Shown here in pieces: positions 1 to 23,000 of a stretch of 64,000 nucleotides of DNA (position 1 is its first letter; every line of letters starts with the position of its first letter). Both the position numbers and the translations under genes were made by a program. The notes under the pieces were generated by a model that was not told the origin of the DNA, did no database searches, and was given only the letters and a program-made list of their open reading frames with translations. This DNA comes from Chthonomonadales bacterium (GTDB lineage: Bacteria; Armatimonadota; Chthonomonadetes; Chthonomonadales; CAJBBX01). Where the stretch lies: positions 160,001 through 224,000 of the forward strand of contig JBBIPC010000002.1 of assembly GCA_037443035.1 (NCBI GenBank), in the 5' to 3' direction.

Positions 1-1
1 C

Positions 2-3500: not shown

Positions 3501-4505
3501 GCACCGTTGTTCTCCGTGAGTGGAGTGCGGCTGGCCGACCGGTCGCCATTGTCGCCTGACCAACTCCCCTCGCTACCTGGCTTACCGGCGCGACCTGCCA
3601 TGCCTGCGTCAGAGCTGGCCAGTCGCCCGTTGTTACCGAGCCTGCGAACAGAATGGCACCAAGGTATCGAACTACCTGGGGCAAGACCAGAGATCCGGCC
3701 GGCGTTCAGGAGTAGTCTGCCCATGGCGATCAGTCTGCCGGGGATCACCCAAGCCCGACATCCTGCGCTCGCATCCGACTCGCTTCCGTCAGCCGGAACG
3801 CTTGACACAGCCACACGCGTGGCCGCAGGACCAATGGAGCAGAGGGTGGCGCGCCCGCTGGTTTCACCGGCACCGTTCGGCGTTCCGATGCTCGCACCGA
3901 TCCCACTGCCGATCTTCGCCAGCACGGCGCAGCGACCGGCGCTCGGCCCAATGCGAAGCGCACCAATGCACCAGACGCTGCCGCAGCCGGACAGGCGGCC
4001 CGCAGAAGGACCTGCGGCCTTACAGCTCGCCGTGCACACGGTTCTGGGCGGTCCACAGCCTTCTGCCACGCCTCTCATGCCAACGAGTCCTGTGCAGCTT
4101 CCCCTGCCGGCTGCGCGTGTGGACATTCCACCCATCGAGCCGCCGCCTATGCCCCTGCCAGGCGCCGGCGAACCGGCATCGCCAGTCGCACTGCGCAGCC
4201 GGGCATCCTCGGTTGTTTCCCACGCACCTCGGCGGTACTACGCCTCGGTGGATGCAGGTCCCGCACGACGGGTAACGGTTCAGAAAGCCACATCGGAAAC
4301 AGCAGGCATCGTTGGCGGGCCTCACCAACCGCTGCCAAGTCCGCATCGCGCCCGACAGATGCCTACCGACACGCAGCGTGCTTCCATCCTGTCCTCGCGT
4401 GAAGAGGGCATGACCGCAAACGAAGTGTTTCTCCTCGCCAATGACGTTTGGGCGATTCTCAAACGACGACTACAGTGGGAGGCGGACCGGCGTGGCCGGT
4501 GGTAA
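573..4505 (+). CDS. 1310-aa Pro/Ala-rich CIS-associated protein with a short helical C-terminal motif; candidate lumen cargo, plug or tape-measure-like protein
   Basis: Long ORF with upstream GAGGAGG, lying between the tube and LysM genes. Mostly low complexity; ends LANDVWAILKRRLQWEADRRGRW. Confidence 0.75.
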   Translation: MALSEQKLRELAEIEPPRFLERIADFLADLTLRTSGTAVLERAQEGAGRPIGSVGLNAESFGMLLSHRAAFHGVADPVQGLYRLMKPYQVGPYELRQFTMWLVKFHDKLSETEVLREPPVVAAAPQAEPARPGVSREAVAPAPSPPSAYRLPAVAVAGAVVSETELARGSRRRVRIVRGPGHPYEEVVEEVPAGSRRAIQRPAGGGGAESTASAEARPAASQPTREPDVISRAWQAGHRSGPPAGIPPEVEVAPSTAKRVAMRTLWLSNLSMASAAAGVMIGRSVAPATMAARLTSPATLGVAGPAATGSMLQPPYMSFPLSHPPVSTASWLGVAPPAPYPAEFVPMPGAPAPLRSLVVPQPAFERPSIVAMPSFGVQMPVLPGREALSIYETAHQAYTGTADVHPRGRPRGTRGALEDALQPTAEASIHPSPAPQRGPSPIPGLLAAGLAGFLLGRLTSRGGGQPVLGPPVYDLFAEPVPSRTGVPRLRIFSVSLPGSLEATLVAPGAGPTAVGGTPGGAFLQVGIPLLGAGPSLGRRLGTAPGMTVPSPMDILGGTVAARGGPAASAPIRVPSQVLPRLGEVTLIAPPMAVASEAAERRGSAVAFDWKALARASGPLDQTGLRRLREALPEGTQAIYPAIPRQDLPAGAVNLRLAPSLLRPLLTQAYGSHAAGIAGAAASTASAIDVTPLSAAPTPARIVPVRRPAGAAESVLPSPTPSVAGALQEAGAGQARRSPMLDFLGVPVRLAPSLAGRAELRDELAARGLATQGATPQVVRPHLFQALREQVFPGVQAIHAEPDRSAWRKAAPHFGLRDSEPTTVLSPDARIKPPRADAPLPQLHTGAPSPVLRPWLAQTVAERSAGAVPMSLAAAPRLAEAFGMPSHRPLHTTGRVSEPHLGMDERFEPFASPMTVPIGIRGMPGMPAERPVRSLWPAPEPDPRSPQDRSPVHLPPVEAHGRVRIPESAPAEHGAPPAPLFSVSGVRLADRSPLSPDQLPSLPGLPARPAMPASELASRPLLPSLRTEWHQGIELPGARPEIRPAFRSSLPMAISLPGITQARHPALASDSLPSAGTLDTATRVAAGPMEQRVARPLVSPAPFGVPMLAPIPLPIFASTAQRPALGPMRSAPMHQTLPQPDRRPAEGPAALQLAVHTVLGGPQPSATPLMPTSPVQLPLPAARVDIPPIEPPPMPLPGAGEPASPVALRSRASSVVSHAPRRYYASVDAGPARRVTVQKATSETAGIVGGPHQPLPSPHRARQMPTDTQRASILSSREEGMTANEVFLLANDVWAILKRRLQWEADRRGRW

Positions 4506-4550: not shown

Positions 4551-5201
4551 ATGGGACTGACCAAAGCCAAGATCATCAACGAAGACACCCGCGAGGTCAT
4601 CGAGTGTCTGTTCAATCCCACCGAGTACACCATCGCCAAAGCCAACTCGTGGCAGCCGAAGCCGGTCGTCGGCAAGAACGTTCCGAAGCTGGACTTCACC
4701 GGCGGCGGTTCTCGCACGCTGGATCTCGAGCTATTCCTCGATGTCTTCGAGCAGAAGGGCGCCGATGTCCGCACCTACACGGACAAGCTTTGGAAGCTGA
4801 CCATGATCGACGAGTCCAAGAAGCACCCGAAAACACGTCGTTCACGGCCACCTCTGTGCACATTCCAATGGGGCGGGAACTGGAGCTTCAAGGCGGCGAT
4901 CACCAATCTCTCCATCCGCTACACGCTGTTCAGGGACGATGGTAAGCCGGTCAGGGCAGTGGCACATGTCACCATGCAGGAGGCGGAGGACGATACAGAA
5001 CAGCGGCGCACCAACCCCACCTCGGGCTCCGAACCCGGACGGAAGCGGCGCGAGGTCCGACCACACGATACCCTCGCACTGATCGCTTTCGAGGAATACG
5101 GAGACGCTGGGCAGTGGCGCCGTATCGCTCAGGCCAACAATCTGGCGGACCCCATGGACCTCCGCCCGGGTCAGATACTGACCATACCGCCCCTTACGTG
5201 A
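4551..5201 (+). CDS. CIS tube initiator with C-terminal LysM-like domain (Afp7-like)
   Basis: IECLFNPTEYTI and RPPLCTFQWG motifs; C-terminal DTLALIAFEEYGDAGQWRRIAQANNLADPMDLRPGQILTIP. Confidence 0.9.
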   Translation: MGLTKAKIINEDTREVIECLFNPTEYTIAKANSWQPKPVVGKNVPKLDFTGGGSRTLDLELFLDVFEQKGADVRTYTDKLWKLTMIDESKKHPKTRRSRPPLCTFQWGGNWSFKAAITNLSIRYTLFRDDGKPVRAVAHVTMQEAEDDTEQRRTNPTSGSEPGRKRREVRPHDTLALIAFEEYGDAGQWRRIAQANNLADPMDLRPGQILTIPPLT

Positions 5202-5269: not shown

Positions 5270-7222
5270 ATGGCTGAAGAACACCACGTCTCGCACTTCG
5301 CCATGCACATAGACGGTTCACCCGCCCCCAAAGAAGTCATGGACCAGCTTCTCGACTGCACCATCGAGAATAGCCTCCACCTTCCGGATATGTGCACGGT
5401 ACGGATCCACCATGGTGAGGCAGACAAGCAGGGCATGTACAAGTTCATCGATTCGCCTCAGTTCGCTGTTGGCAAGGCGATGAAGATTACGGGTGGTGAA
5501 GGTCCGAGCGGCGATTCGACCCTGTTCGAAGGGGAGATCGTCGGCGTCGAGCTAGACCTGGCCGCACACGGCGTGCCCACTCTGGTGGTGCGATGTTTCG
5601 ACAAGAGCCACCGCTTGCATAGGGGAAGGCAGGCCCGCACGTTCGTTCAGATGAAGGACACGGACATTGTGCAGCGCGTCGCAGGCGAGGCTGGCCTGAG
5701 CGTCGAGGCCGATCAGACCAGCGAAGTCCATGACTGGGTCATGCAGAACAACCAGACCAACTGGGAGTTCCTGCAAGAACGTGCGGCCCGGAACGGCTTC
5801 CGGCTCTTCCTGAAAGACGGCAGCAAGCTGTGCTTCAAGAAGGTCGAGGATGATGGTCGGACAACCCATACCCTCGAGTGGGGCAAGGAGCTACGCAGCT
5901 TCCGGCCCAGGGTATCGGCGTCTCCCCAGGTGGACGAGGTGGAGGTGCGTGGTTGGGATCCCAAGAAGAAACAGGCGATTATCGCAAGAGCCAAGTCCGC
6001 CAAGGGCGTGCCGAAGGTACGGCAGGATCGTCAAGGTGGAGAGGTCGCCAAGCGCGCGTTTGGCAGCGCCAAGATGGTCGTCGTCGATCGTCCCGTCCAT
6101 AGCGAAGGCGAAGCTAAGGCCATCGCCCAGTCGTTGTGTGACGAGATTGGGGCCTCCTTCCTGGAAGCCGAGGGTCTCTGCTACGGCGTGCCGCAGATGC
6201 GGCCGGAGGACATGGTCAAGATCCAGAACATCGGTGATCGTTTCAGCGGTGAGTACCTGGTCACGTCCTGTACCCACACCTACACACCGGCCGAAGGTTA
6301 CGCCACCGTCTTCACTGTGAGCGGCAAGAAACCTCCGACCCTCCTTTCCGTTCTGGAAGGGGATGAGCTGTCTCGTCGTGCGCCCATCGGTGGCAACATC
6401 GTGGTTGGCGTGGTTACGGACAACAACGACCCCGATAACTTGGCGCGGGTCAAAGTGAAGTTCCCCTGGCTCACCGAGGAGCACGAGAGCTTCTGGTCTC
6501 GTATTGCCGTACCTATGTCCGGCCCAGATAGAGGAATGCTGTTCTTGCCCGAAGTCGGCGACGAGGTCCTCGTGGCTTTCGAGCATGGCGACATCCGACG
6601 CTCCTACATCATAGGCTGCCTCTGGAACGGCAAGGACAAGCCACCAAAGACGCGCAAGGACGACTACGCTAGCTCGAAAGCCGTCAATGGCGGCAAGACC
6701 ACTCGCCGGTGGATACGGACGCGCATGGGGCACATCCTGGAGTTCTTCGATGATTGCGATGGCAAGATTGGTGCCACGCTCCGAACCAACGAAGGCTACC
6801 GGATTCAGCTCCGCGAGAACGACCAGCGCATCGAGATCATCACGAAGAACAAGCACATGATGCTACTCGATGACAAGAACGATGTGATTCGGGTCGTGGA
6901 CAAGACCGACGGCAATCACATCAAGATCAGCACGAGCGACAACTCGATTCTCGTCGAAGCGAAAGGCGACATCACCGTCCGCTCCAAGCAGGGCAACATT
7001 ACCCTCGATGCTATGCAGAAAGTCGTCATTACCGCGAAGCAGGGCATCGAGGCGACTACGCCGCAGCAAGTCAAGATCGAGGGTACTGCCGGGTTCAGCA
7101 TCAAGACTGCCGCCAGCGGGTCTGTGGAAGCCACCAATCTCGATCTCAAGGGCAATGCAAAGGCCAACCTCCAGGGCGGCGCCATGGCGACGATACAGGC
7201 CGCACTGGTCAAGATCAACTAG
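5270..7222 (+). CDS. vgrG: VgrG-like spike protein (Afp8; gp27-gp5 fusion)
   Basis: Late-control-D-like N-half (QNNQTNWEFLQERA, VEVRGWDP), gp5 OB fold (GVVTDNNDP..ARVKVKFPW..LPEVGDEVLVAFEHGD) and a beta-helical C-terminus. Confidence 0.93.
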   Translation: MAEEHHVSHFAMHIDGSPAPKEVMDQLLDCTIENSLHLPDMCTVRIHHGEADKQGMYKFIDSPQFAVGKAMKITGGEGPSGDSTLFEGEIVGVELDLAAHGVPTLVVRCFDKSHRLHRGRQARTFVQMKDTDIVQRVAGEAGLSVEADQTSEVHDWVMQNNQTNWEFLQERAARNGFRLFLKDGSKLCFKKVEDDGRTTHTLEWGKELRSFRPRVSASPQVDEVEVRGWDPKKKQAIIARAKSAKGVPKVRQDRQGGEVAKRAFGSAKMVVVDRPVHSEGEAKAIAQSLCDEIGASFLEAEGLCYGVPQMRPEDMVKIQNIGDRFSGEYLVTSCTHTYTPAEGYATVFTVSGKKPPTLLSVLEGDELSRRAPIGGNIVVGVVTDNNDPDNLARVKVKFPWLTEEHESFWSRIAVPMSGPDRGMLFLPEVGDEVLVAFEHGDIRRSYIIGCLWNGKDKPPKTRKDDYASSKAVNGGKTTRRWIRTRMGHILEFFDDCDGKIGATLRTNEGYRIQLRENDQRIEIITKNKHMMLLDDKNDVIRVVDKTDGNHIKISTSDNSILVEAKGDITVRSKQGNITLDAMQKVVITAKQGIEATTPQQVKIEGTAGFSIKTAASGSVEATNLDLKGNAKANLQGGAMATIQAALVKIN

Positions 7223-7231
7223 GAGAAGCAC

Positions 7232-7528
7232 ATGCCACCTGCAGCACGCATGGGAGATCCAACTGCACACGGAGGGGTGATCACGATGGGCTGTCCCACT
7301 GTCCTCATCGGAGGTCAACCGGCGGCCCGTCTGGGCGACATGCACACGTGCCCCATGGTCACACCTGGTACACCGCCGGTCCCCCACGTGGGCGGGCCCA
7401 TCCTTCCGCCGTGCCAGCCTACCGTTCTAATCGGCGGCATGCCAGCCGCCAGGGTCGGTGACATGGCCACGTGTGTCGGTCCCCCCGACTCGATTGTGAT
7501 GGGTTGCGTGACCGTGATCATCGCCTGA
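7232..7528 (+). CDS. PAAR spike-tip protein (Afp10-like)
   Basis: Three PAAR motifs (PAARMGD, PAARLGD, PAARVGD) with His/Cys metal ligands; GGAGA RBS. Confidence 0.95.
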   Translation: MPPAARMGDPTAHGGVITMGCPTVLIGGQPAARLGDMHTCPMVTPGTPPVPHVGGPILPPCQPTVLIGGMPAARVGDMATCVGPPDSIVMGCVTVIIA

Positions 7529-7551: not shown

Positions 7552-7959
7552 ATGCCCGACGCAACGAAGGATTTCCTGGGATCAGGTTGGAAGTTTCCGC
7601 CGGTCCTCGATAGCCGTGGCCGCATTGCCCTTGTGCACCAAGAGCAGGACGTCGAAGAAGCCATCCAGATGATCCTCCGAACACGCAAGGGAGAGCGACC
7701 CATGCGACCGCAGTTCGGATCGGACCTGCATCTGCTCGCCTTCATGCCCAACGACGCCAGCACGCAGGGCATGGCCTGCCGGTATGTCCGTGAAGCGCTG
7801 GCATGGTGGGAACCCCGCATCGAGGTGGTCGAAGTCAATGCTCGGGCCGACGAAGCGGATCCGGCACGCATGCTCATTGACATTCGTTACCGGCTCTTAG
7901 CCACGAACTCGGAACGGAATCTTGTGTTTCCGTTCTATGTGATCCCCGGAGAGGAGTAG
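7552..7959 (+). CDS. GPW/gp25 baseplate protein (Afp9-like)
   Basis: Start moved to ATG 7552 behind GAGGAGG. Motifs FLGSGWKFP, ILRTRKGERPMRPQFGS, WEPRI and NLVFPFY. Confidence 0.93.
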   Translation: MPDATKDFLGSGWKFPPVLDSRGRIALVHQEQDVEEAIQMILRTRKGERPMRPQFGSDLHLLAFMPNDASTQGMACRYVREALAWWEPRIEVVEVNARADEADPARMLIDIRYRLLATNSERNLVFPFYVIPGEE

Positions 7960-7968
7960 CACGCCGCC

Positions 7969-10101
7969 ATGTCCCTCCCAAGCCCCAACCTGGACGACCG
8001 AAGCTTCCAGAGCATCGTAGATGACGTCAAGCGTCAGATCGGTCTGCGATGCCCCGAGTGGACCGACCACAACGTCTCGGATCCCGGCGTCACGCTCATC
8101 GAGCTGTTCGCCTGGATGATGGAGATGACGCTGTACCGCCTCAATCAGGTTCCGGAGAAGAACTACCTGAAGTTCCTGGAGATGCTCGGCGTCTCGCTGG
8201 AGCCGCCGCAGCCGGCGCGCACTGACCTGCGATTCCGGCTTTCACGTCCCATCGAGGACACTGACGGAGAGGAGGCGTACGAAGTCACCCTCAAGCCCCG
8301 CTCCACTATCGCGGGCACCGTTCGAACAGAGACCGAGGAGTCCATCGAGTTCGCGACTGACAGTGAACTGAAGATGGTTCGGCCCCGTATGCGCTACGTC
8401 ATCATGGCACCGAAGCGCGACCTGGCTGAAGGTGAGGACGAGCTGACGCGCGACATCCAGGAGTTTCAGCCCGGCCACGGGGCGTTCCAGATTTTCAGTC
8501 CCGTACCGCGGACAGGTGACGCTCTCTACATCGGCTTCGAGAACGACGTCTCGGGGAACCTCATACAGCTAGACGTGGAATGCGTAACCGCCGCGGCTAC
8601 TGGTCTGAACGAAGACTACCCGGCTCAGGTATGGGAGTGGTGGAACGGAACAACGAACAGATGGGAGCGCCTGGAGACGCCCTTCGACGACACCTTTGGC
8701 TGGAACCGGCCTGGTTACATCGAGCTGGACATGCCGCAGAATCTGGTGCCCAGGGTCCTGGGAGGCCGGCGTGCCTACTGGGTGCGTTGCCGATATACGA
8801 TCGATCCGGAAGACGTTCCACCGAAGGGTCCACAGAACCGCGGTCCAGATGAGTACCAGAAGCCGCCTGAGATCACTTCGCTGTTCGCACGCACGGTGGG
8901 CGGCACAGCCCCCGCGAGTCAGTGCACGACGGTATTCGAAGAAGTGCTTGGTCAGAGCGATGGCACTCCCGGCCAGGTTTTCCGCCTCAAGAACGCTCCG
9001 ATCATGCCACGTCGTCCTGGAGAGACGGTTCTCGTCGGCCGCGAGGGTGCGCCGCCCGAGGAAATGCAGAAGTGGACGGAGGTCGTGGACTTCTCCGAAT
9101 CCGGACCGGACGACCTTCACTTCACTTGCGACTCCCTGACCGGGGAGGTAGCCTTCGGACCAGCGATTCCACAACCCGATGGTTCCGCTCGTCGCTATGG
9201 CGCGATACCCGAGAAGGGCATGACGATCGTGTTTTCGGCGTACCGCTTTGGAGGTGGCACACAGGGCAACGTTCGAGAGAACCAGGTCCGCGTCCTCAAG
9301 TCCTCCATACCTTATATCGCGGAGGTGACCAACCCACGCAAGGCCCATGGAGGACAGGACCTGGAGGATATCGAGAGGGCCAAGATGCGGGGCCGCGCTG
9401 TGCTCAAGATGCGCGACCGAGCCGTAACGGCCGAGGATTTCGAGTTTCTTGCCAAACGAGCATCGTCCGGCGTCGGTCGGGCGCGATGCATTCAGCCCGC
9501 CCCTCGGCATCTGTGGACCGATGAAAGCGATGTACCGCCCGGAGTCGTCAAGGTGCTCATCGTTCCGGCGCTGTCCGAGGCCGTCACCGTCCCACGTCCC
9601 GCCGATCTCCGTGTGCCAGAACGCACAAGACGCGATGTCGAGCGCTATCTGGACGAGCGACGGCTTCTCACGACGGTACTCGAAGTCGGCGAGCCGGAGT
9701 ACCTATATGTCTCGACAGACATCGTTCTGGTGGCCGACCCTCATGCCGACGCAGAGGAAGTAGTCCGTCGCGTACGGGAGAAGCTGACGGCGTACCTCCA
9801 TCCGCTCACCGGCGGACCAACGGGCGATGGATGGCCCTTCCGCCGAAGCTTCACCATCTCCGATCTCTATGCACAAGTGGGAGCAGTGGACGGCGTAGCG
9901 TTCCTTCTTGACGCCAAGATATATGTCTCGCAGGTTGCGAACCAGGAAGAGGGCATCCTCGGTCCAGAGCAGCTCGTGCCCAATACGGAAGGCGTACGAG
10001 TGGCAGGTCACCAACTGCTCACCACACGAGAGCACAGGGTACGAGCCCGATCTATCTACCAGGTGGGCGCCGAGGACAGCCCCCTACTCGATGAAGCATA
10101 G
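7969..10101 (+). CDS. Baseplate J-like assembly protein (Afp11-like)
   Basis: LPSPNLDDRSF, PEWTDHNVSDPGVTLIELFAW, LGQSDGTPGQ, RDRAVTAEDFE and YLHPLTGG motifs. Confidence 0.93.
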   Translation: MSLPSPNLDDRSFQSIVDDVKRQIGLRCPEWTDHNVSDPGVTLIELFAWMMEMTLYRLNQVPEKNYLKFLEMLGVSLEPPQPARTDLRFRLSRPIEDTDGEEAYEVTLKPRSTIAGTVRTETEESIEFATDSELKMVRPRMRYVIMAPKRDLAEGEDELTRDIQEFQPGHGAFQIFSPVPRTGDALYIGFENDVSGNLIQLDVECVTAAATGLNEDYPAQVWEWWNGTTNRWERLETPFDDTFGWNRPGYIELDMPQNLVPRVLGGRRAYWVRCRYTIDPEDVPPKGPQNRGPDEYQKPPEITSLFARTVGGTAPASQCTTVFEEVLGQSDGTPGQVFRLKNAPIMPRRPGETVLVGREGAPPEEMQKWTEVVDFSESGPDDLHFTCDSLTGEVAFGPAIPQPDGSARRYGAIPEKGMTIVFSAYRFGGGTQGNVRENQVRVLKSSIPYIAEVTNPRKAHGGQDLEDIERAKMRGRAVLKMRDRAVTAEDFEFLAKRASSGVGRARCIQPAPRHLWTDESDVPPGVVKVLIVPALSEAVTVPRPADLRVPERTRRDVERYLDERRLLTTVLEVGEPEYLYVSTDIVLVADPHADAEEVVRRVREKLTAYLHPLTGGPTGDGWPFRRSFTISDLYAQVGAVDGVAFLLDAKIYVSQVANQEEGILGPEQLVPNTEGVRVAGHQLLTTREHRVRARSIYQVGAEDSPLLDEA

Positions 10102-10113
10102 GGAAGCGGCTAC

Positions 10114-11265
10114 ATGACAACCACACTGGACGGACGAAGGACGCCGCCGGGCAGCCAGGAAGACATCGGCCAGCCCATACAGAACATCGAGGTATCGGTT
10201 ACACCGGACGCCGTTCGGGTCGAACTCCTCCCCAGGCACGCCGGTTCACCACTGGAACGCCTGCGACCACTGTGGCATGAAGTGGTGAGGCTACCGCGCA
10301 TGGTGCTGAGCGTCACGTCTTCTGACGAACGCCCACGCCTCCTCAGGCTCTCGACCCGTTCGACGGATTCAGCCTGGCGATCATGGTGGACTCGCTGGAC
10401 GTTCGCAGTTCGGACGGTACCGGAGATCCATGGAGGCGACGCCGTCGCGGCTCAGGACATCACACTCGAGGACGATACGATCCTTCAGATACTCGTTCTT
10501 CCTGGAGAGACGCGGGAGGTCGCACTGGAATTCCGTCCTGTCCTGGACGGCACGACTCACCCCGGCGACTATGTCTTCGATATAGTCTACACGGACGTGA
10601 ACGACCGCTCCGAGGGGGCCGTCTCCGCCATGCTTGTGCTCCGGCATCCCGACAGCGTCCTCGAGCGACAGCTACCAGCCATCTACGCCGAGGAGATGGA
10701 CAGACTTCAGGAGGCATCAGGAGAACCCTACGAACCACCGTTCTTCCGGCGGTACCTCCGTGGGTTCGATGATGCGCTGGAGCCCATGAAGGAGACGCTG
10801 GACAACCTGCATCGGTTTTTCGGTGCCTACGAGACGCCGCCGGACTTCCTCCCCTGGCTGGCAACGTGGGTGGACCTCGTTCTGGATCAGAACTGGCCGG
10901 AGATGAAGCGCCGTCGCCTCATACGCGAGGCGGTCGAGCTCTATCGCTGGCGCGGTACCCGGCGTGGGCTCATGCGCTATCTCGAGATCTATGCCGGCGT
11001 GAAACCGGAGATCAACGACCGTCCCTTCCGGGGCATGCGCCTCGGCCCAGACACGGTGCTAGGCACAGGTCTCGAGGATCCAGAAAAGGCCCACCAGAAC
11101 ACCGTGCTTGGTGATGTTCCCGACCATACGTTCGTCGTGACTATCGCAGTACCGGACCCTTCGGCCATTAGTGAGCAAACGGTTCGGGACATCATTGACG
11201 CTCAGAAACCTGCCCACACCGCCTATGTCGTGCGGATTGTACGACGTACATCATCGGAGGAATAG
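10114..11265 (+). CDS. Tail-protein-I-like baseplate wedge protein (Afp12/Cis12-like) with an extra N-terminal Ig-like module
   Basis: C-half has LPAIY, FLPWLATWV and RRLIREAVELYRWRGTRRGL..IIDAQKPAHT. The N-terminal ~175 aa is beta-rich (PGETREVALEF..PGDYVFDIV). Confidence 0.88.
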   Translation: MTTTLDGRRTPPGSQEDIGQPIQNIEVSVTPDAVRVELLPRHAGSPLERLRPLWHEVVRLPRMVLSVTSSDERPRLLRLSTRSTDSAWRSWWTRWTFAVRTVPEIHGGDAVAAQDITLEDDTILQILVLPGETREVALEFRPVLDGTTHPGDYVFDIVYTDVNDRSEGAVSAMLVLRHPDSVLERQLPAIYAEEMDRLQEASGEPYEPPFFRRYLRGFDDALEPMKETLDNLHRFFGAYETPPDFLPWLATWVDLVLDQNWPEMKRRRLIREAVELYRWRGTRRGLMRYLEIYAGVKPEINDRPFRGMRLGPDTVLGTGLEDPEKAHQNTVLGDVPDHTFVVTIAVPDPSAISEQTVRDIIDAQKPAHTAYVVRIVRRTSSEE

Positions 11266-11274
11266 GAGAGTTCC

Positions 11275-12444
11275 ATGCCACTCGAGGACATGATAGCCCA
11301 CCCCATTACCGGCATCCGCCCCTTCAACGAACTCCGTATAGATGCCGAGATCTGGCGCGAAGCCCACGAGCAGCACACGCTCCATCGTCGCCTTCACAAC
11401 GTGTCGGCTCACCGGCCCGGCATCGTCTATGGATTGGAGGTCGTGGTCTCCCAGACGAAGGAGCGGACAATCGTGGTGGCGCCCGGAGTCGCCATAGACG
11501 ATGATGGCAATGTCGTCGTCCTTGGTGAGCCACCAGTGGCGTTCACGCTCGAGGAGAAAGGGCAGACCTATATCACCCTATCGTTCCTCCGCGCTACGGA
11601 CCGGCGATCGGCAGTGACAGTCGGATCCGGTCAGCAGCATTATCGCATCGTCGAAGGTCGCGACGTGCGGGCCACCAAGGAACTCCCGACAGGCCCGTAC
11701 ATCGAACTGGCGCGGATCTGGCGTACTGGCGCTGACAAGCCCGTCAAGGAGGCGGCGAACCCATTCGATCCTGGCAACGACGAGCTCAACCTCCTGAACC
11801 GGCCTATCGCCTTCCCTCATTGTTATGCTGAAGGAGCCGTGGGCGAGCTTTCGTATGTGCCGGTTTCCAATCCCGCCGCATGGAAGCCAAATAGATCCGG
11901 ACTGTGGCATCTGGTCCGGGAAGGCAACGGTCGGGGGTTTCATCTGTCGTTCACCGGTCCCATGAATCTGCGCCAGCCATCCGGGCGCGATCCCATCCTG
12001 CTCTATGTCGCAGGTTCCGAAGCTTTTCAGCCGCTCGCCGATGCCGAAGTCCAAGGCCTTCGCGAATACCTGGGTCGCGGTGGAATGCTGTTTGCCGAGG
12101 CCAGTGGCGGCTCCGAGGCGTTCGCTAAGAGCTTCGAGGAATTGGCGGGCAAGTTGGGCGCGAAGTTGGCGAAGGTCTCGAAGGGGCACCCCTTGCTGAC
12201 CGCTCATCACGTTTTCTCTGGACCACCTCCTGGCGCACAAGAGAAGGGCGTACTTACCGCGGACGTAGAAGCAGGCGTCATCTTGAGCACGTACGATTAT
12301 GGTGGTGCGTGGCAGGGCGATCTCGCCAAGCCCGATGCGGCAGATGCTCGCGACCGAATCCGCCAGGCTCAGGAGTTCGGCCTGAACGTCATCGCCTTCG
12401 CTGCACACCGACTCAGAACACGCGAACTGCGCAAGCTCGGTTAG
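11275..12444 (+). CDS. CIS accessory protein: tail-fibre-attachment-like N-terminus fused to a DUF4159-like domain
   Basis: N-terminal GIVYGLEV..VAPGVAIDDDG motif; C-terminal PILLYVAG..GLREYLGRGGMLFAEA..HPLL pattern typical of DUF4159. Confidence 0.75.
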   Translation: MPLEDMIAHPITGIRPFNELRIDAEIWREAHEQHTLHRRLHNVSAHRPGIVYGLEVVVSQTKERTIVVAPGVAIDDDGNVVVLGEPPVAFTLEEKGQTYITLSFLRATDRRSAVTVGSGQQHYRIVEGRDVRATKELPTGPYIELARIWRTGADKPVKEAANPFDPGNDELNLLNRPIAFPHCYAEGAVGELSYVPVSNPAAWKPNRSGLWHLVREGNGRGFHLSFTGPMNLRQPSGRDPILLYVAGSEAFQPLADAEVQGLREYLGRGGMLFAEASGGSEAFAKSFEELAGKLGAKLAKVSKGHPLLTAHHVFSGPPPGAQEKGVLTADVEAGVILSTYDYGGAWQGDLAKPDAADARDRIRQAQEFGLNVIAFAAHRLRTRELRKLG

Positions 12445-12565
12445 GCAGTAGCCGCCGAGCGTACAGCCGCGAGCATTCATCGTCGCCTGACATAGCGGCG
12501 CAGTCTCCTTGACTGGCGTAGGACGTGAGCACGTCAGGAGCTCGCGTCACACGCCTCATGCGACG

Positions 12566-12594
12566 TTGCCGCTGGAGAGTGCGTCTGCTATAAT
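12566..12594 (+). promoter_or_regulatory. sigma70-type promoter for the two membrane-protein genes
   Basis: TTGCCG (12566-12571), 17-nt spacer, TATAAT (12589-12594) with extended -10 TG. Confidence 0.7.
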
Positions 12595-12667
12595 GGCTGG
12601 GTATGATGCCGTGGCCGCGCGGAGAGCTTTGTAGGCGCGCACCATCCTTGGAAGATCGGAGACGCAA

Positions 12668-15091
12668 GTGGCAGCATCCGAGCAAACGAGGCAGTACCTG
12701 AACCCTCCTCCCCGCAGCGTGCTAGAGGTCGAGGCTGGTTCGGCAGTAGCACTCGCACTCGACTTCAGCAACGAGGCTCCCAACCCGCAGGGTTTCTACC
12801 TCGAAATAGACGGCCTCCCGGCTGCCGACTGGTCTACCGGTGTCGGTCCAACCAGCATGGTAGTAACGGCAGCGTTGGGAGCGGGTACGCTCAAGGCAAC
12901 GTTGCAGCCACCCGTTCGCGCTGCTGCGGCTGAGTATGCTCTGACAGTGAGGATCATCGCCGACGGCTCGGTGCTCGATCCGCCAGGAGACATAGCTCTG
13001 ACCCTCCGTGTGCTACCCGGGCCGGAACCGCCTGAGGAGGAGGTGTCTCCGGAGGCTGCCAGGATCCTGGAGGAAGTAGCCGCTGAGGAGGCGGCCACCC
13101 AAGCCACGTTAGAGACCGCCTTCGAGACATCATCCAGCGCGCCCGCTGTGGAAGTTCCCGCAGTCGAGCCGGCGGTATCCACTCCGGTTCCACCTCCTGC
13201 GCCGGAGCCTGCTCGGCCCACGGAACCGGTCGAGACGCCAACCGTCGCTGAGCCGCCGGCCGTGTCTCCACAGCCAGACATTGGGCCGCAGGTACAGCCA
13301 GCACCGCAGACTCCGGCGGCTACTTCGCCGGCCCCTGAGACACCTGCAAGTCCGCCACGGCCGACACAGCGCTCAGCCTCCGCGGCGCAGCCCCGACCGG
13401 CCGCACCACCCCGCCCTGCCAAGCCACCGGCTGCACCCAAGCCGACAGCTCCGTCGCCTCCTCCGCGGAAGCCCGACGAAGACATGCCCGTCATTGACCT
13501 CGGGGCCACGAGGCCGCACGTCGAAGAAGAGGAGGAAGAGGAACCGGCAATTGCAGAGAGGAGCGTGGTCGATCCCAAGGAGGGTACGGTCATCTCTCTG
13601 AAACCCGGTGAGACCACGCTGGTGCGCTTCAGTTTTCGCAACGAGCAGCGATCGACGCGGACATATGTCATAGACGAGGATCGGTCGCTGGAGCCAGGAT
13701 GGCTCGTTCTCGTGCAAGACCAAGTCAACATCAACGCCAACGGCACGGGTGAAGTCAGTGTGCGCCTCGCCCCACCCATCACAGCGCAGCCCGGGAGCTA
13801 TCCTTTCGTGGTGCGCGTCGGTCCGCTCGGCGCAACGCTGACACCGTGCAGCCTCGTGCTGGAAGTCCAGCCGACGCCTGCAGTGAAGTTGACAACCAAA
13901 CAAGATCTGGTGAAAGTCGGTCCCTTCGGACGGGCAGTGGACTTCGGCCTCATCGTCGAGAGCGCCGGCAACGCCGATACCTCCTTCCGGATCTCGGTGA
14001 AAGACCAGACTGTAGAGACCGATGAGCAGGGCCGCCCGAAGGGACCAGATGATCTGTACGAGACTCCTCTATGGCGGTACCTGTTCGACAAGGAGTTCGA
14101 AACACTCGAGTCCAAGGCCATAGGACGTCCGCCGAACCCCATACCTCTCCGCCTGCGAATGCTGCGCAAGGGCATCTGGTGGTTCGGTTTCAAGGAACAG
14201 CACCAGGCTCGTGTCAAGGCTGTGCCTGTTACCGACCCCACCAACGGAGGCAAGACAGAAAACTCGGTTCTACTGACGGCGATCCGCTGGCGCCTGTTGC
14301 CCATACCCGGCTTCCTGGCATGGCCACTCGCAATCGTCCTGTTCTTGCTCTTGGCTTCCGGCGCGAGCAACATGCGGGTGACCAATGCCTACAGTGTGGG
14401 CAGCTCCTATTATGTCCTGCAGATGCGAGACGATAACTGGACGGAGGGCAAGCCGCCCGTGAACATGACTGCCAAACTCCGGTGGAGCGCCCCGTGGTAC
14501 GCGCTGCTCAGGCTGAAGGCGTCAGAAGAAAACCGGACGGAGACTCACTACTTCGTACACGGGGGCTACGACGATACGATACAGGTCGAGGAATACGGCG
14601 ACAAGCGACGCCGCTCCTATGAAGTCGGTTCTCTGCTCCGTCCTGGCGGTGACCCGATACAGGTTCGGTTCGTCCCCCTGCGAACGGATATGAAATTGCT
14701 GCTCACGATCGGCCCTTCGGCAGCCCCCGTGGACGAATACGAGCGGGATGAATCCATCGGTGAGGACAAGACACCCCTCAAGACGCGAGAGGTCATCATT
14801 GACGTGCCCAGGGATGGCAGCACGCGTATCAACTTCAGCAACCTGACGGACCGAAATCGCGGTTTGAAGATACTGGTTCACCCCGTCACCGTACCCTCCC
14901 AGTTCAGAGTGGAGAACTTCACACTCAACGATTCGTCGCAGATCAACCCGGGAGAAACCCTCACGGCTAAGGTGACCTTTACGGGTACCGCGCCTCCAGA
15001 CGGCTCGAATGTGGAAGAGGATTGGCAGTTCGTCACGACAGACGCCACGCACCAGGTTCTCCATGTGCGCCTCCGGCTGAAGGTGGACTAG
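12668..15091 (+). CDS. Single-pass membrane protein with repeated Ig-like (COG1470/NEW3-like) modules, a Pro-rich linker and a C-terminal Ig-like domain
   Basis: 807-aa ORF with no signal peptide. Pro/Glu-rich linker, one hydrophobic helix (GFLAWPLAIVLFLLLASGA), modules ending AAAEYALTVR and QPGSYPFVVR. Confidence 0.75.
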   Translation: MAASEQTRQYLNPPPRSVLEVEAGSAVALALDFSNEAPNPQGFYLEIDGLPAADWSTGVGPTSMVVTAALGAGTLKATLQPPVRAAAAEYALTVRIIADGSVLDPPGDIALTLRVLPGPEPPEEEVSPEAARILEEVAAEEAATQATLETAFETSSSAPAVEVPAVEPAVSTPVPPPAPEPARPTEPVETPTVAEPPAVSPQPDIGPQVQPAPQTPAATSPAPETPASPPRPTQRSASAAQPRPAAPPRPAKPPAAPKPTAPSPPPRKPDEDMPVIDLGATRPHVEEEEEEEPAIAERSVVDPKEGTVISLKPGETTLVRFSFRNEQRSTRTYVIDEDRSLEPGWLVLVQDQVNINANGTGEVSVRLAPPITAQPGSYPFVVRVGPLGATLTPCSLVLEVQPTPAVKLTTKQDLVKVGPFGRAVDFGLIVESAGNADTSFRISVKDQTVETDEQGRPKGPDDLYETPLWRYLFDKEFETLESKAIGRPPNPIPLRLRMLRKGIWWFGFKEQHQARVKAVPVTDPTNGGKTENSVLLTAIRWRLLPIPGFLAWPLAIVLFLLLASGASNMRVTNAYSVGSSYYVLQMRDDNWTEGKPPVNMTAKLRWSAPWYALLRLKASEENRTETHYFVHGGYDDTIQVEEYGDKRRRSYEVGSLLRPGGDPIQVRFVPLRTDMKLLLTIGPSAAPVDEYERDESIGEDKTPLKTREVIIDVPRDGSTRINFSNLTDRNRGLKILVHPVTVPSQFRVENFTLNDSSQINPGETLTAKVTFTGTAPPDGSNVEEDWQFVTTDATHQVLHVRLRLKVD

Positions 15092-15094
15092 ACC

Positions 15095-17365
15095 ATGAAG
15101 CTCTTGCAGACCGAGATCAACATCGTCCCAGGCGTAGCAGCCCAACGCCAACCGCTGCCGGAGGGCATGGTAGGACAGGGTGCCACCGTTGTCCGCCTCA
15201 CCAATAACACCAGCCAGGAAAACGCCTACACCATTCGCCTGGGCTGCGACAATCCTTACTGGCAAGAGTCTTGGTACACGCTCGTCCCGTTGCCACCGTC
15301 CGGAGCGCCGGAGAACGCACCTCCGGCAGGGAAGCCGGACCAGGTCTCCCATAACGGGCGCGTGGCTACGCTGTTCATCACGCGAGGCGGCGAGCGGGAT
15401 GTCATGGTCGTCTTCAAGGTGCCCAAGGAGTACGATGCCCGCGCAGGTCTCTACGATCTCACTATTCAGGTCGAGACTCGCGTCACGGGACAGTCCGCGG
15501 GTCTCCGGCGCAAGGACAGATTCACCGAGTTACATGCCACCGCCATCATTCGGCCGTTCGAGCCGTTCGATCAGTGGCGAATGGAGCTTCAGCCGGAGAC
15601 CCGCAAGGTGGGATTCTTCCGCCGTTCTACCGAGTTCGAAGCGGTTCTTACTAACGAATGCAATGACTGGCTATACTGCGAGCTACGCGCTCCGCGGCCC
15701 AAGGATGTCCTCATCGAGACTCCGTCGCAGTATATCGCAGTCCCGCCCCCGGAGCCTGGGCAGGAACGCACAGTGCGAACAGTGCCATTTCGTGCAGCAA
15801 GCCGGATCCGCCCGTTCCGCGGGGAACGCGTGCCATTGTCAATTCCCCTGACAGCGGTCCGCATCGCAGCGCCCACCGTAGCTCCGCTGCCCGAAGAAGC
15901 GCTCTATACCCCAGGCAGCGCGAACTGCCATGCTGCCGTCGTTGCCACCGAGACACAAGAAACACGTGTGCCGCCAGTGGAGCAGGCGCTGACGTACTGC
16001 CCACTCTTCCCTGCGACTCTCAGCGGATGTCTTGGTGCAATCGCCCAGAATGCCAAAGGGCTGATCATGACACTCATCGGCCTGATCGTGGCCGCGAACC
16101 TGGCTGTATTCATGTTCGAGCAGATGTTCCGCCACAACATTATCGCCGAACCCTATCGCACGCAGGTGGCACCTGGCGGGGTACTGACGATCGGCGGACG
16201 CTGGGTAAAGGGATCCCGCGTATACATCAATGACGAGACGCAACCCGCCGAGCAGGTTGAACCGCCCGAAGAGAAGGGTCTGCGGAACTTCTTCGCTAAC
16301 GCCCTCAAGGCCGTGCAGCCGTCCCAGTTGCAGCTGATTGCCATCAAGGTACCGGAGACGTACGACGGTAAGAAGATCCGCATTACGGTGCAGCGCGCCG
16401 GAGCGTTGCCGTTCCTCGGCCCTCTTCTACCGAAGTACAAGTGCGGCTCTATGGTGCAAGTCGGTAATCCGCCACGGCCTCCAGCGCCTGCCAAGAAGGC
16501 CTTCGCGTTTGTCGCGCCGACGGTGGCCCCTGGGCAGCAGTTCGCCATCTCCGGCAGCTCACTGGGTACTTCCGGGCAGGTCTTGATGGGATCGGAACCT
16601 GCACGCGTGGTGCGGTGGACACCAACTCGCATCGTGGCGTCACCGCCGGCCAACTTACCGGTCAATGATGCAATACCAGTGAATGTCATACCGAAGGATC
16701 ATGACCCGATCCCGGCCGGCACCATCAAGATCGTCCAGCCAGGTGCGAGCGCCGCCGAGACGCCCTCAGGCACCGCGACGCCACCGACACAAGGAGCTTC
16801 GGGCGCGACCACTCCAACGCTTCCGCCGGTGAATAGGCCCGGACCGGGTACCGTCAGGCCGCCGGTGCGGCCTCCCAGCGTCCCCAGAGGAACTGCAGCG
16901 GCAGCAGCAGCCTACACAGCCCTGCTTCGTGGCGACCCTGGCCAGACGTCGGCGAACGTCAACCGCGCACTCCAGACCAATCCTAACGATCCGCTGGCAC
17001 TCGCGGTAAAGGGCTATGCACTTCTTCGGGATGAGAAACCCGGCGACGCGGCCAGCTCCATCAGCCAGGCTCTGCGTTTGACTGCCGGACAATCCGGACG
17101 CGCGCGATCCGTGGCATTGACGGCATCGGCATGGCTCTCGGAGATGCGCGAAGACCCCACGTCGGCCGAGAGGCAATACAGGGAAGCCCTTAAGGCCGAC
17201 CGTACCTGCACTTTGGCTGCCTATAGCTACGCGTACTACCTCCTCGACAACAACCGACGAGCGGAGGCCATGGAAGTTGTGCGGACTGCGTTGCGCAACA
17301 ACGGTTCAGAGGCCCGGTCGTCCTCCCGTTTCATGGATCTGGCAGGCCAACTCGGCATCCACTAG
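15095..17365 (+). CDS. Single-pass membrane protein: N-terminal Ig-like module, TM helix, IPT/TIG-like domains and C-terminal TPRs
   Basis: Starts 3 nt after the previous stop. TM GLIMTLIGLIVAANLAVFMF; VAPGQQFAISGSSLG..RWTPTRIVA (IPT-like); TPR-like ALQTNPNDPLALAVKGYALL. Confidence 0.75.
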   Translation: MKLLQTEINIVPGVAAQRQPLPEGMVGQGATVVRLTNNTSQENAYTIRLGCDNPYWQESWYTLVPLPPSGAPENAPPAGKPDQVSHNGRVATLFITRGGERDVMVVFKVPKEYDARAGLYDLTIQVETRVTGQSAGLRRKDRFTELHATAIIRPFEPFDQWRMELQPETRKVGFFRRSTEFEAVLTNECNDWLYCELRAPRPKDVLIETPSQYIAVPPPEPGQERTVRTVPFRAASRIRPFRGERVPLSIPLTAVRIAAPTVAPLPEEALYTPGSANCHAAVVATETQETRVPPVEQALTYCPLFPATLSGCLGAIAQNAKGLIMTLIGLIVAANLAVFMFEQMFRHNIIAEPYRTQVAPGGVLTIGGRWVKGSRVYINDETQPAEQVEPPEEKGLRNFFANALKAVQPSQLQLIAIKVPETYDGKKIRITVQRAGALPFLGPLLPKYKCGSMVQVGNPPRPPAPAKKAFAFVAPTVAPGQQFAISGSSLGTSGQVLMGSEPARVVRWTPTRIVASPPANLPVNDAIPVNVIPKDHDPIPAGTIKIVQPGASAAETPSGTATPPTQGASGATTPTLPPVNRPGPGTVRPPVRPPSVPRGTAAAAAAYTALLRGDPGQTSANVNRALQTNPNDPLALAVKGYALLRDEKPGDAASSISQALRLTAGQSGRARSVALTASAWLSEMREDPTSAERQYREALKADRTCTLAAYSYAYYLLDNNRRAEAMEVVRTALRNNGSEARSSSRFMDLAGQLGIH

Positions 17366-17455: not shown

Positions 17456-18247
17456 TTACTTCGTCTTGCTCATGAGGCGCTCGATCTCGGCCTTGTCGCT
17501 CGCGGTCAGGTTCTTCAAGGCCTTCGCCTGACCCAATACTGCCCGCGCCTGGTCGGTCTTGTTCTGGGAACAGTACAGCTCGGCCAACCGCAAGTATGGG
17601 ATGACATATTCAGGCGACATCTTGATAGCATCCTTGTAGCTTGCCTCGGCAGCCTCGAGGTCTCCGTTGCTATAGGCGTCGTCGCCCTCCTGTTTCATCT
17701 TGATGGCCGTCGCGCGCTTCTCCTCTGCTGACATCGCCGCCGATCCACCTTCAGAACCACGACGTCCCCAGCTCACCTGGCGCGGTTGGAACGTCTGCCG
17801 GATGCTCGAAACCAGTTGCCTGGCGAGTCCTGCAGGACTCAGGCCCCATTCGCGTGCGAAGCCCGCGTCCGCGGTTATGACGTAGACCGACCCGTCGGAT
17901 GCCTTGGGCAGGTCTGTCGTCTTCAGTCCTGCCACGGTCACGACGACTGCCTTCCCCGCCTTGCCTACCGATAGCCGCTTCCACCAGGCCGGATCCTGAC
18001 TGTGAACAGCACGCAAGCGATCCGCCACCGTCTGGGCGCGCTTGCCGACGGGCCAACCAGGCAGGGAGCTGACTACCTCTACCACGCGCGACCGACGGCC
18101 TGCCACCTGCATATCCACCACGCCAATCCGTTTCCCGCCAGGCGTGTTGACTTCATACGCGCGAAACTCCGGCTGTTGCGCGGCTGCAACCAGTCGTGCC
18201 GCCAGACATGCCGCGGATAGCACCAGCGCCTGGAGCTTTCTCTTCAT
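17456..18247 (-). CDS. Exported protein with C-terminal TPR repeats
   Basis: Start at ATG 18247 after GAGGAGG. Signal peptide MKRKLQALVLSAACLAARLVAAA; TPR GDDAYSNGDLEAAEASYKDAIKMSPEYVIPYLRLAELY. Confidence 0.8.
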   Translation of the reverse strand: MKRKLQALVLSAACLAARLVAAAQQPEFRAYEVNTPGGKRIGVVDMQVAGRRSRVVEVVSSLPGWPVGKRAQTVADRLRAVHSQDPAWWKRLSVGKAGKAVVVTVAGLKTTDLPKASDGSVYVITADAGFAREWGLSPAGLARQLVSSIRQTFQPRQVSWGRRGSEGGSAAMSAEEKRATAIKMKQEGDDAYSNGDLEAAEASYKDAIKMSPEYVIPYLRLAELYCSQNKTDQARAVLGQAKALKNLTASDKAEIERLMSKTK

Positions 18248-20090: not shown

Positions 20091-23000
20091 CTACCATCTT
20101 GCGAACACGTAGTGCCACACACTGCGGCCATCGGTACTCGCGCTAGACTGCGCCGCAGGATAGACAACAGGGAGAGACTGCTCCCAGCCGCGAAGGTCGT
20201 TGGTCGGGCGCAGCGATTGCCTCTCGAAGTACGGTTTCTCTGCGCTTGCGACCGCCTTGTTCTTCTCCTGAGACTGGCCGACCAGCTGGGCCAGTATGGC
20301 ATTCGCCCGCGTAATGACGTCCGGCATGCGCACGGATGCAGGTGGCAGCTCGTCCAGCGCTTTCAGGAGTGCATAGGTGAAAAAGCCGTTCTTGAAGACC
20401 TCACCGTTGTACGATATGGCAAGTTTCGGGTCGTCGTCCAGGTTCTCGTTGGCTTGCTCGCCTTTGCGGCAGGAGAACAGCGCCGAACACAGGACGGCAC
20501 CGTCGTCGCTGGATAGGTCCGGAGGTGCGGCATCGAACGGCGCCTTCGTACCATTGCGGCACGCGTCGTACACACACATCACGGTGACAGGTGTGTCCTT
20601 CGAACCCCAGTTGACAAGGTTCTTGACACGCGTGGGCCACTCCCAGACGTAGACTCTTGCTGGTGCCGACGGATCGTCGTCCGCCATGATGAGGTGGTCC
20701 ACGTTCAACGCCGTGCGCGTGCCGAGGCTCGCGGTGACGTTCGTGCCGTGTCCCGCGAAGAAGATGAGGACATGTCGCGCCTTGCGCTGCTCGAGAACCT
20801 TCAGGAAGGTATCGAAGGCTGCGGCCACGACCTTGCTTGTCGCCAAGCCGAACCGCTGCCCTGGTCGCTTCGTCTCGGACAGATCGTTTGGCGTTGTGCT
20901 CTTGACGTTCTGGAGGCCGTTCGTGCGCATCTCCGGGGTGCCTGAGTCGTTGCGGCCAACGACGTACACGATATTCTCCGGCGCATAGCCACGTTCGATG
21001 AGCTTCGCACGGATGGACATGGCATCGTCGGCCGCATGCCGCAGGGGCAACGTGCGGAACTCACCGGTACCGTAGTAGTTGATTCCGACGACGAAGGCCA
21101 CGGCCCTGACCGCCACGCGGATCTTCACATCTGCACGCGCGGGTGCCTGGGATGCGTCATCTGAATCCCACAGCCGGACGCGGATGGTATACGCCCCAAC
21201 ACTTAGCCTTCCGTCTTCGATCTGCAACTTGCCGTCCAGAGGGGGTGGCTTGGGGGTTCGCTCAGTGCCCGGGACGACATTTCCTCGGCTGTCCACCACG
21301 TCCCAGGCGATGAGCTTGATGCCCTGCGGGTCGAACTCGACGATCGTGTCGGCATTCCGGCCGGCATCGTTGGCGTTGAACACCAGGGACCGCGATCCGG
21401 TACCGTCGTCACAGTAGACGAAATCCGGCTTCTTGAAGTTGAACGCTACGGCGGCAGCAGGAAGCTCGATCGTCAGTTCCTGCTGTGCTCGTAGGGTCTG
21501 TGTACCGAACGGCACCTCCGCGGTGACCGCGACTTTCCCCTGGCTTGCACGAAGACCAGCAAGTGGGAAGCGCCATTCTCCTCCAGTACGGCTGCCCTGC
21601 AGCGTCTGATCCCCGAACTTCACAGTTACAGTATCGGCCCATGTCTTCACGCGGACCGCAGCAGCATCTGCTAAGACATAGCCGCCTGCAGGTCGTTTCA
21701 CGAGACTCACGCCCTCCACAGTGAGTCCCGGTTCGATGGCCGTGGTCAGGTTCGCCTCGGCCTTCTTCACCGCCTCCAGCGCATCCGTTCCAGCAAGCGC
21801 CGCAACGTTGTCGGCGTATTGCCGCGCAGACGCGAGAGCAGCCTGTGCTCTTGCCAGTGCGTCCGGGGGTCGCTGATCTCGTGTAACGGCGCTGATGGCG
21901 GTGTTCGCCAGAGCAAGCAAGCGTTGCAGCTTCCGCTGACACATGGCACCTACCCACTTCGGCGGTGCAGCGCCTCCGCTCGATGTGCCGCTGCGTAGGA
22001 GATCCAGGTATCCAGCAAGCGGGGCGGACAACTGTGGCAGCGCCCCTGGCGACAGCGGCACAGTGATCGTCTTCGGTACGTCACCAGCGTTTGGATACGC
22101 AACCATGACGGTGACACGCACATTGGTCGCAGAAGGTGCAGGGACAGCGAGAAGGACTAGCTCCGCTCGTGCGTCGCTGCCGCTATGGGTCACCAGACCT
22201 TCGAGATTCTCCAGATCTATGTCGTCCATGCGAACTGCTTTGACACGGCGTCCGAGAACCAGCCCGGTGACATCGAGCCGGATTGCCGCGATTCCATCAC
22301 GATCAGCGAACACCGACGAAACCACAGCGACCTCGACAGGCGTCTTCTCCAGCTTCTGCTGAGCTTCCAGTGCTTCGCGCGCCTGCTGAGCTTCCCTGGC
22401 ACGCCGCTCGGCCTCTTCGCGCTCCTTCTGCTCCTTTGCGCGCTGAGCTGCCTCGCGTGCTTTGCGCTCTTCCTCAGCTCGCCGGAGACGCTCCTGTTCG
22501 GCTTGGATCTGCGCATCCAACTGAGCGATGCGGGCATCGAGATCTTCGCCACGACCTACAGCCTTGGCAAGGAGGCGGAGTCCACTGAGATATGCCTTGG
22601 CTTCGGAAGCCGCACCTTCGGGCGTCTGGCGCAACCGGTAGTCGTAGAGGTCGTCGAGCACTTGCCGTGCCTCCGCTGCGTGGGAAGGGTCGGTAAGCAC
22701 GCCGATGTAGGCCCGTTCGCCGGCAGCGAGATCTCCCCGAGCCAGCTCCCGCTGGTAGTCAGGCAGCCTTCCCAGGCGCGGATCCGACGGCTGGATGGTC
22801 TCGGGGGAGCTTGGCCATTGGACAACCACGGGATCCGATGGACGCACCGTCCTGGCCTGCACCGTAATGGACTGTGCACCGCCCGTCCATGGTATTAGGA
22901 ACACGCTACGGCTGCGGGCTTCGCTCGATCCGGCGATCGTCTCGACCGGAGTCACATCGGCTGGGTATTCGAAGCCGTTGATCATGACGCGCGGTATTAC

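Follow-up and report, generated by a model that had tools for sequence, protein, structure and literature searches.

How a type IId contractile injection system (CIS) of the cytoplasm reaches a membrane and fires there is debated, and CisA, the adaptor proposed in Streptomyces, is missing in Chloroflexota. The question is raised again by a 64,000-nucleotide stretch of a Chthonomonadales bacterium (Armatimonadota; assembly GCA_037443035.1, contig JBBIPC010000002.1, positions 160,001 to 224,000 of the forward strand), here called the window (G000:C2:160001-224000, G000 being the source genome, 100% complete in 61 contigs). Positions 10114 to 17365 of the window hold the 3' end of a CIS operon, itself complete, with four plus-strand genes referred to, wedge excepted, by their first nucleotide: the baseplate wedge (10114..11265), a fibre-position protein (11275..12444) and two predicted bitopic membrane proteins, A (12668..15091) and B (15095..17365). 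An initial annotation had proposed that an immunoglobulin (Ig)-like module common to the wedge and both membrane proteins forms a harness tying the baseplate to the inner membrane, as in an anchored injector; the CIS role of the membrane proteins proved well supported, whereas homotypic co-assembly of the modules and an unrelated trans-envelope complex did not. The genes, their predicted helices and their co-inheritance suggest docking candidates, and the reading put forward here, as possible rather than probable, is a type IId-like cytoplasmic CIS with a lineage-specific inner-membrane docking or trigger module.

The four segments on which the harness was built are in place, at residue 129 of the wedge, residue 96 of 15095 and residues 356 and 70 of 12668, and the tryptophans upstream of them are conserved (W69/W73/W76 in the wedge domain; W56 and W60 in 15095; W55 and W345 in 12668). 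Compared as single sequences in a six-sequence test, only the two 12668 copies (m1 and m2) are linked (E 5e-8), other pairs falling at E 0.02–0.9. Profiles built from 26–54 family members matched the N-terminal domains of wedge and 15095 at 96.3% (E 1.5e-9) and m1 with m2 at 99.5%, with weaker pairings for m2 and 15095 (59%), wedge and m2 (43%), wedge and m1 (11%), and m1 and 15095 (8%); five profile pairs scored 23–61 against maxima of 17–22 in 30 column shuffles, every shuffle being exceeded. A single Ig domain is nonetheless common to all four segments, because each matches the first Ig domain of a bridging paralogue (a family of 18 proteins) at 95.5% (wedge), 98.1% (m1), 97.2% (m2) and 97.3% (15095). 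The predicted wedge domain is an all-beta sandwich (mean model confidence, pLDDT, 85) whose best structural matches are Ig folds of the PapD/ASH/MSP/FixG type (Z 11.6–10, root-mean-square deviation ∼3, ∼105 residues), including the solved structures RbmA, CEP192, 2QSV, YadV, EcpB, CsuC, CupB2 and SafB; together with the paralogue-bridged profiles, this bears out the common fold that had been suspected by eye, as a PapD/ASH-like Ig domain. Neither the 12668 alignment nor 11275 drew an informative match in sequence searches of solved structures, and in the ESM Atlas 12668 fell only among clusters that were unnamed or FixG_C/Cep192/NPCBM, 11275 only among unnamed ones.

Overlooked in the initial annotation was a second Ig domain (IgB) common to 12668 and 15095, matching the second domain of the paralogue at 94% and 97%, respectively; because it lies between the module (IgA) and the transmembrane (TM) helix, the unit is IgA-IgB-TM. 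Protein A carries m1 at 12695-13021, a proline-rich linker, m2 at 13559-13879, IgB extending to 14305, a TM helix at 14294-14350 and a variable C-terminal part; protein B carries IgA at 15095-15565, IgB to 16009, a TM helix at 16061-16117, two IPT-like domains, a proline-rich linker and a tetratricopeptide (TPR) region after the helix. In the wedge, the Ig module (10171-10659, residues 20-182) precedes the Tail_P2_I domain (residues 216-367) and looks like a duplicate of the N-terminal domain of 15095: an inserted loop with conserved tryptophan and Asp/Gln residues is common to these two and missing from the other copies, and thus suggests duplication from 15095, while leaving room for a harness between that particular pair. 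Complex prediction for the wedge domain with the cytoplasmic tandems of 12668 and 15095 scored 0.00, which gives no verdict and is not used as evidence.

The module is widespread. At E≤0.001, a 12668-core profile picks out 1,558 representatives, with long proteins of up to 16 matched stretches frequent among them, and the 15095 profile matches 110 of 391 Armatimonadota genomes, comprising 21 with an orthologue, 88 with a weak single-copy match (∼360–690 residues) and one with fragments only. A match to the baseplate J family TIGR02243 occurs in just three of the 89 non-orthologue genomes, 85 of the 88 paralogue genomes being without one. In the source genome the paralogue (L060:8947-10497, contig C16) is a single-copy IgA-IgB-TM protein with beta-rich repeats, beside genes that we take to be alaS and gpmI; a purH-like gene, as we read it, adjoins the paralogue in several other genomes. 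CIS specificity of the module is ruled out by these representatives and by the paralogue in genomes lacking a baseplate match. The proposed co-assembly of the cytoplasmic modules with the wedge copy had been deduced from the shared fold, which is weak evidence for it because the module is common and present in a CIS-independent paralogue. The same persistence, in 88 genomes of which 85 lack TIGR02243, indicates that the family is able to act as a resident membrane protein. A tree of 35 cores gives four separate subfamilies whose relations are not settled, with a long-branch warning; A and B may derive from the host paralogue or from the lineage of Streptomyces Sco4256.

Orthologues, as opposed to the fold, are tied to CIS loci, as the initial annotation had expected. 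Of 391 Armatimonadota genomes, the same 21 contain the Ig-fused wedge (E<1e-13), 12668 (E<1e-60) and 15095 (E<1e-37); each of the 21 matches TIGR02243, and the cassette is missing from 35 further genomes that match it. The order wedge-11275-12668-15095 is kept in 28 of the 28 loci holding all four genes, within a partly redundant set of 42, gathered by scanning genomes and metagenomes, in which most incomplete loci are cut by contig ends. A secreted-looking TPR protein encoded just downstream (17456..18247, minus strand; signal peptide by inspection) has orthologues (E<1e-40) in 17 of 20 sampled cassette genomes and in none of 351 others. In the three cassette genomes without it (G205, G280 and G077), an AAA ATPase gene stands just downstream of 15095.

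The TM helices, assigned from Kyte-Doolittle hydropathy alone with a cut-off of at least 1.8, number one per protein, as had been supposed, in 50 of 50 sequences of the 12668 family and 51 of 53 of the 15095 family, and the 15095 model contains a helix (322-345) directly after the Ig tandem. In keeping with the absence of a signal peptide, no sequence of either family has a hydrophobic window in its first 40 residues, and the positive-inside bias of the 12668 family favours N-in in 50 of 50 cases. Beyond the helix, the domains described in 15095 were recovered as TIG (E 0.011) and TPR matches, the model showing two beta domains and a helical repeat; Foldseek with the full model matched multi-Ig structures only in part (TM-score ≤0.16), and the post-TM part of 12668 had no match in a Pfam scan. 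Median identity to the window proteins is 56–58% (12668) and 49–50% (15095) for the pre-TM tandems and 26–33% for the post-TM domains, the least conserved parts, while the proline-rich linker of the 12668 family ranges from 60 to 409 residues in 42 relatives. In 24 B-family and 28 A-family members, a Pfam scan revealed no toxin family and no lectin third domain; after the TM helix it found TIG, TPR and YARHG, the last at the C-terminus in 2/24 and 2/28 members, respectively, and one of the 24 B-family members has an N-terminal TIR fusion. A Sco4256-like actinobacterial relative in Streptomyces clavuligerus (L053:11995-13671) ends in PG_binding_1, which fits a cell-wall anchor better than a tube cargo. 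These C-terminal YARHG and PG_binding_1 domains and the N-terminal TIR fit an N-in/C-out topology with the conserved face in the cytoplasm, and we infer an inner-membrane location with this orientation for 12668 and 15095. With the fold common, the TM helices predicted and the orthologues CIS-linked, a CIS role for the membrane proteins is well supported. A sigma-70-like site before 12668 (12566-12594, in a 223-bp gap) is not above chance (2 found, 1.8 expected); the gap is below 10 bp in several relatives.

Which protein would meet the membrane pair is less obvious than the shared module implies. The N-terminal domain of 11275, which precedes DUF4159 and is shoulder-like, weakly matches CIS13 (E 1e-4) and All3314 (E 0.11); its matches to fibre-anchor domains are weak only, and comparison with TssK gave no match. 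With invariant length and a median identity of 61–63% across loci, 11275 is as conserved as baseplate J (61%), and in this respect appears unlike a receptor-binding fibre. In the type VI secretion system (T6SS), TssK connects the wedge to the membrane complex. The N-terminal domain of 11275 may be eBAP3/TssK-like, and as eBAP3 domains are described as binding Tail_P2_I wedges and resembling TssK (PMC12923769), 11275 would be no weaker a candidate for docking than the wedge Ig domain. The N-terminal slot of the wedge seems to accept interchangeable interaction modules, because in another Armatimonadota CIS (L083:3-857, minus strand, G349) an FHA domain takes the place of the Ig module.

Far from being unrelated to known CIS accessories, 12668 and 15095 appear to be diverged relatives of the Ig-Ig-TM family of Sco4256-4258, for which published data point to cargo. 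Membership was read through five actinobacterial stand-ins, picked by product names, architecture and, in three of five, a CIS locus. A paralogue query returned 22 plasmid records, 21 of them from Streptomyces or Kitasatospora, and five of the plasmid regions were inspected: three belong to CIS loci annotated as such, a fourth adjoins a PAAR gene that stands alone, and the fifth has no annotation. Compared directly with the five proteins, the 12668 core matches at 95.3% over 201 columns, 15095 at 31% and the wedge domain at 0.5%; via the paralogue, 12668 (98.8%), 15095 (99.3%) and the actinobacterial set (99.8%) all join. The proteins Sco4256-4258 each have one TM helix, resemble one another at the N-terminus and are toxic in E. 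coli (PMC10066040); the first domain of Sco4256 matches PapD-like chaperones, RbmA and CEP192, a list found by HHpred that overlaps the matches of the wedge model, and about a third of family members have a toxin or lectin third domain (PMC10020575). Both sets have tandem PapD-like Ig domains, one TM helix, a variable C-terminal domain and a place in type IId CIS loci. The Armatimonadota pair differs in being two strongly diverged paralogues fixed directly after wedge and 11275, in the extra Ig copy on a long linker, in C-termini of Ig, IPT and TPR rather than ricin lectin domains, and in its diderm host; the wedge carries an Ig module here, whereas two actinobacterial wedges (169 and 183 residues) do not.

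Among membrane-associated CIS, a parallel in layout is offered by CisA of S. coelicolor (Sco4242; PMC12237407), likewise bitopic with N-in/C-out topology, encoded downstream of the wedge genes and proposed as a membrane adaptor or trigger, its interaction being unproven; the 12668/15095 pair occupies the place of CisA in Streptomyces. The cytoplasmic part of CisA is a long unstructured stretch, whereas here folded Ig domains flank the linker, and one query with the CisA-like C-terminal domain found nothing in the source genome (best E 0.22), so that no sequence relation was found. The thylakoid CIS of Anabaena (PMC8894136) also implicates a baseplate extension and a fibre-position protein in membrane anchoring, but its TM helix is in Cis13 itself, whereas the present locus has a Tail_P2_I wedge, an 11275 without a TM helix and TM helices on separate proteins; an anchor of that type is ruled out by the best hydrophobic window of 11275, at 1.31. 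The T6SS TssJLM/TssK assembly offers an analogy only, in a TssG-like Tail_P2_I wedge, an eBAP3-like (TssK-like) adaptor candidate and two bitopic proteins. TssL (DotU) and TssM (IcmF) had no match in the source genome, an E. coli control being positive, which rules out a TssJLM-like complex; no outer-membrane component is co-inherited with the cassette, a lipobox pattern scan of the locus proteins found none, and the post-TM domains are poorly conserved, so the trans-envelope complex of the initial annotation is unsupported.

If the docking reading holds, the cytoplasmic Ig-Ig tandems of 12668 and 15095 would receive the periphery of the baseplate via 11275 or the wedge Ig domain, and the extra Ig copy of 12668, on its long proline-rich linker, could catch free particles. 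The variable periplasmic Ig, IPT and TPR parts, with the secreted TPR protein, might brace against or sense the cell wall. Docking would probably be conditional, as proposed for CisA, with firing into or through the cell's own envelope.

The remainder of the operon encodes the CIS core. The cap (Pvc16_N), sheath, tube, chaperone and a 2542-residue DUF4157 protein are encoded upstream of the window (G000:C2:147688-159641), followed, all on the plus strand, by the tube initiator (Cis5-like, a second tube), which begins just upstream of the window (1..481), a 1310-residue Pro/Ala-rich protein of no known family that is conserved at both ends in relatives (573..4505), the Cis7 hub with CIS_tube and LysM domains (4551..5201), a VgrG-related spike (5270..7222; NF033848 above cut-off), a PAAR protein (7232..7528), a gp25-like baseplate protein (7552..7959) and baseplate J (7969..10101; TIGR02243 above cut-off). 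With cap, sheath, tubes, LysM hub, VgrG-related spike, gp25, baseplate J and Tail_P2_I wedge, the core set of type IId is complete, and the locus is, by its sequence, an intact CIS of type IId-like class, the class being read from gene content. Its core proteins share 28–56% identity with those of a Streptomyces plasmid CIS, it contains the one sheath locus found in the source genome, and its named relatives are Armatimonadota except for one metagenome-assembled genome labelled Janthinobacterium. Two queries for the Cis15 AAA ATPase did not find it in the source genome (best matches 26–29% over the AAA core); a CIS-type AAA ATPase was found in three of ten cassette genomes tested, and not in the single-contig genomes G164 and G227. 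The DUF4157 protein (L001:9014-16642, upstream of the window), with its hydrolase-like N-terminus and long Arg/Gly/Ala-rich middle, is likely an effector or tape-measure-like cargo. The host is diderm, as its genome encodes Omp85.

Downstream, on the minus strand, lie a caspase-like Peptidase C14 protein (20091..24497) and, between 18422 and 30162, a LuxR-type regulator with a propeller-like C-terminus, a PorV-like barrel and a multi-Ig protein, which stand beside the CIS in close relatives only. Among 18 loci with at least 5 kb of downstream sequence, 15 have Peptidase C14 genes, several with signal-peptide-like N-termini, and nine have NlpC/P60 genes, neighbours that may link the system to cell death or envelope remodelling.

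Several observations weigh against docking. A conserved N-terminus with a variable C-terminus also suits effectors; the Ig modules conserved least are the wedge domain (39% median identity to the window proteins) and m1 (37%); and the positive-inside bias of the 15095 family is neutral (20 for N-in, 22 against). The 21 cassette genomes are kin from five families, and therefore show inheritance as a unit rather than 21 independent events. Linkage also has exceptions: in L100 an orthologue of 15095 stands alone, in G368 it is broken and its context is not that of a CIS, in G321 it is broken or fragmentary, in G280 the 12668/15095 pair is on another contig behind unrelated genes while the wedge is present, and G030, which has no baseplate match, encodes a protein with m1, a long proline-rich linker, a TM helix and IPT (L022:8640-11201, minus strand); in L102 the pair is followed by VgrG. 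Among published systems, particles of a related lineage in Roseiflexus, a genus that encodes Sco4256 homologues, lie free in the cytoplasm (PMC12998442, which also reports CisA as missing there). Sco4256 was recovered together with the particles in each of three preparations (PMC10020575), and deletion of sco4256-4258 left ∼85% of tubes empty, against ∼97% filled in the wild type (PMC10066040).

These last results are the strength of the principal rival, that 12668 and 15095, in the manner of Sco4256-4258, are cargo associated with the particle, with the Ig tandem as a loading handle, the TM helix inserting into a membrane after firing and the wedge copy either a side effect of domain duplication within the locus or a site for loading. 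The E. coli toxicity, the variable C-termini and the homology of the 12668 core to actinobacterial proteins of CIS loci annotated 'hydrolytic protein' or RICIN are all in its favour. It is nevertheless considered unlikely, since no toxin family was found in the C-termini scanned, the DUF4157 protein is already an effector candidate in the locus, the number and order of the genes do not vary, the family occurs independently of a CIS as well, and A and B form long-branch groups of their own rather than nesting among the actinobacterial proteins. It is also possible, with a small probability, that this is an ordinary extracellular or free cytoplasmic CIS with 11275 as a short fibre and with membrane proteins that never hold a baseplate but are envelope accessories such as assembly chaperones, stress sensors or release factors; the fibre-type anchor domain and fibre position of 11275, the PapD-like fold of the Ig tandem and the signalling or lysis context lent by the C14 and NlpC/P60 neighbours agree with this, but it leaves unexplained the same module on the wedge in all 21 genomes and the invariant length and high conservation of 11275.

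The stable harness of modules and wedge copy proposed in the initial annotation, firing outward in T6SS fashion through a novel trans-envelope complex, is improbable. The diderm host, the co-inherited secreted protein, the loop common to the wedge and 15095 domains, the NlpC/P60-LysM genes adjoining some loci and the haloarchaeal CIS anchored by proteins other than TssJLM (PMC11566945) can be cited for it. Set against these are, beside the missing lipobox and poorly conserved periplasmic parts, a PorV-like barrel gene that among annotated loci adjoins the CIS only in the window and G013, a CIS-type AAA ATPase not found in seven of the ten genomes tested, and a toxin-immunity array of which none was noticed and none was searched for. 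Equally doubtful is the bolder proposition that an Armatimonadota-specific CIS, stably anchored in the inner membrane and firing outward, amounts to a T6SS evolved independently in a diderm phylum, its membrane complex put together from a pair of host Ig-Ig-TM proteins that arose by duplication, the Ig-fused wedge, an adaptor like TssK and a TPR partner in the periplasm; if it were true, Sco4256-type 'effectors' could be resident membrane anchors.

The component parts are known families. What appears to be new in print is the cassette as a fixed unit, the fusion of an Ig module to the wedge, a Sco4256-like pair that is doubled and diverged in a diderm host, and the CIS-independent paralogue: full-text literature searches, with most subscription papers outside their reach, returned no paper joining contractile injection or extracellular CIS (eCIS) with Armatimonadota, none joining contractile injection with COG1470, and none combining eCIS, FHA, Chloroflex and baseplate. 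Five supplement files of a fibre catalogue contain no Armatimonadota genus term, and PMC13277306 concerns other effectors and has no bearing on the cassette. The pure-cargo reading of the Sco4256 family is called into question, because genomes that lack a baseplate match encode the same architecture in a single copy. For the debate on how a cytoplasmic type IId CIS comes to the membrane, the cassette provides strictly co-inherited, testable candidate parts in a diderm phylum.

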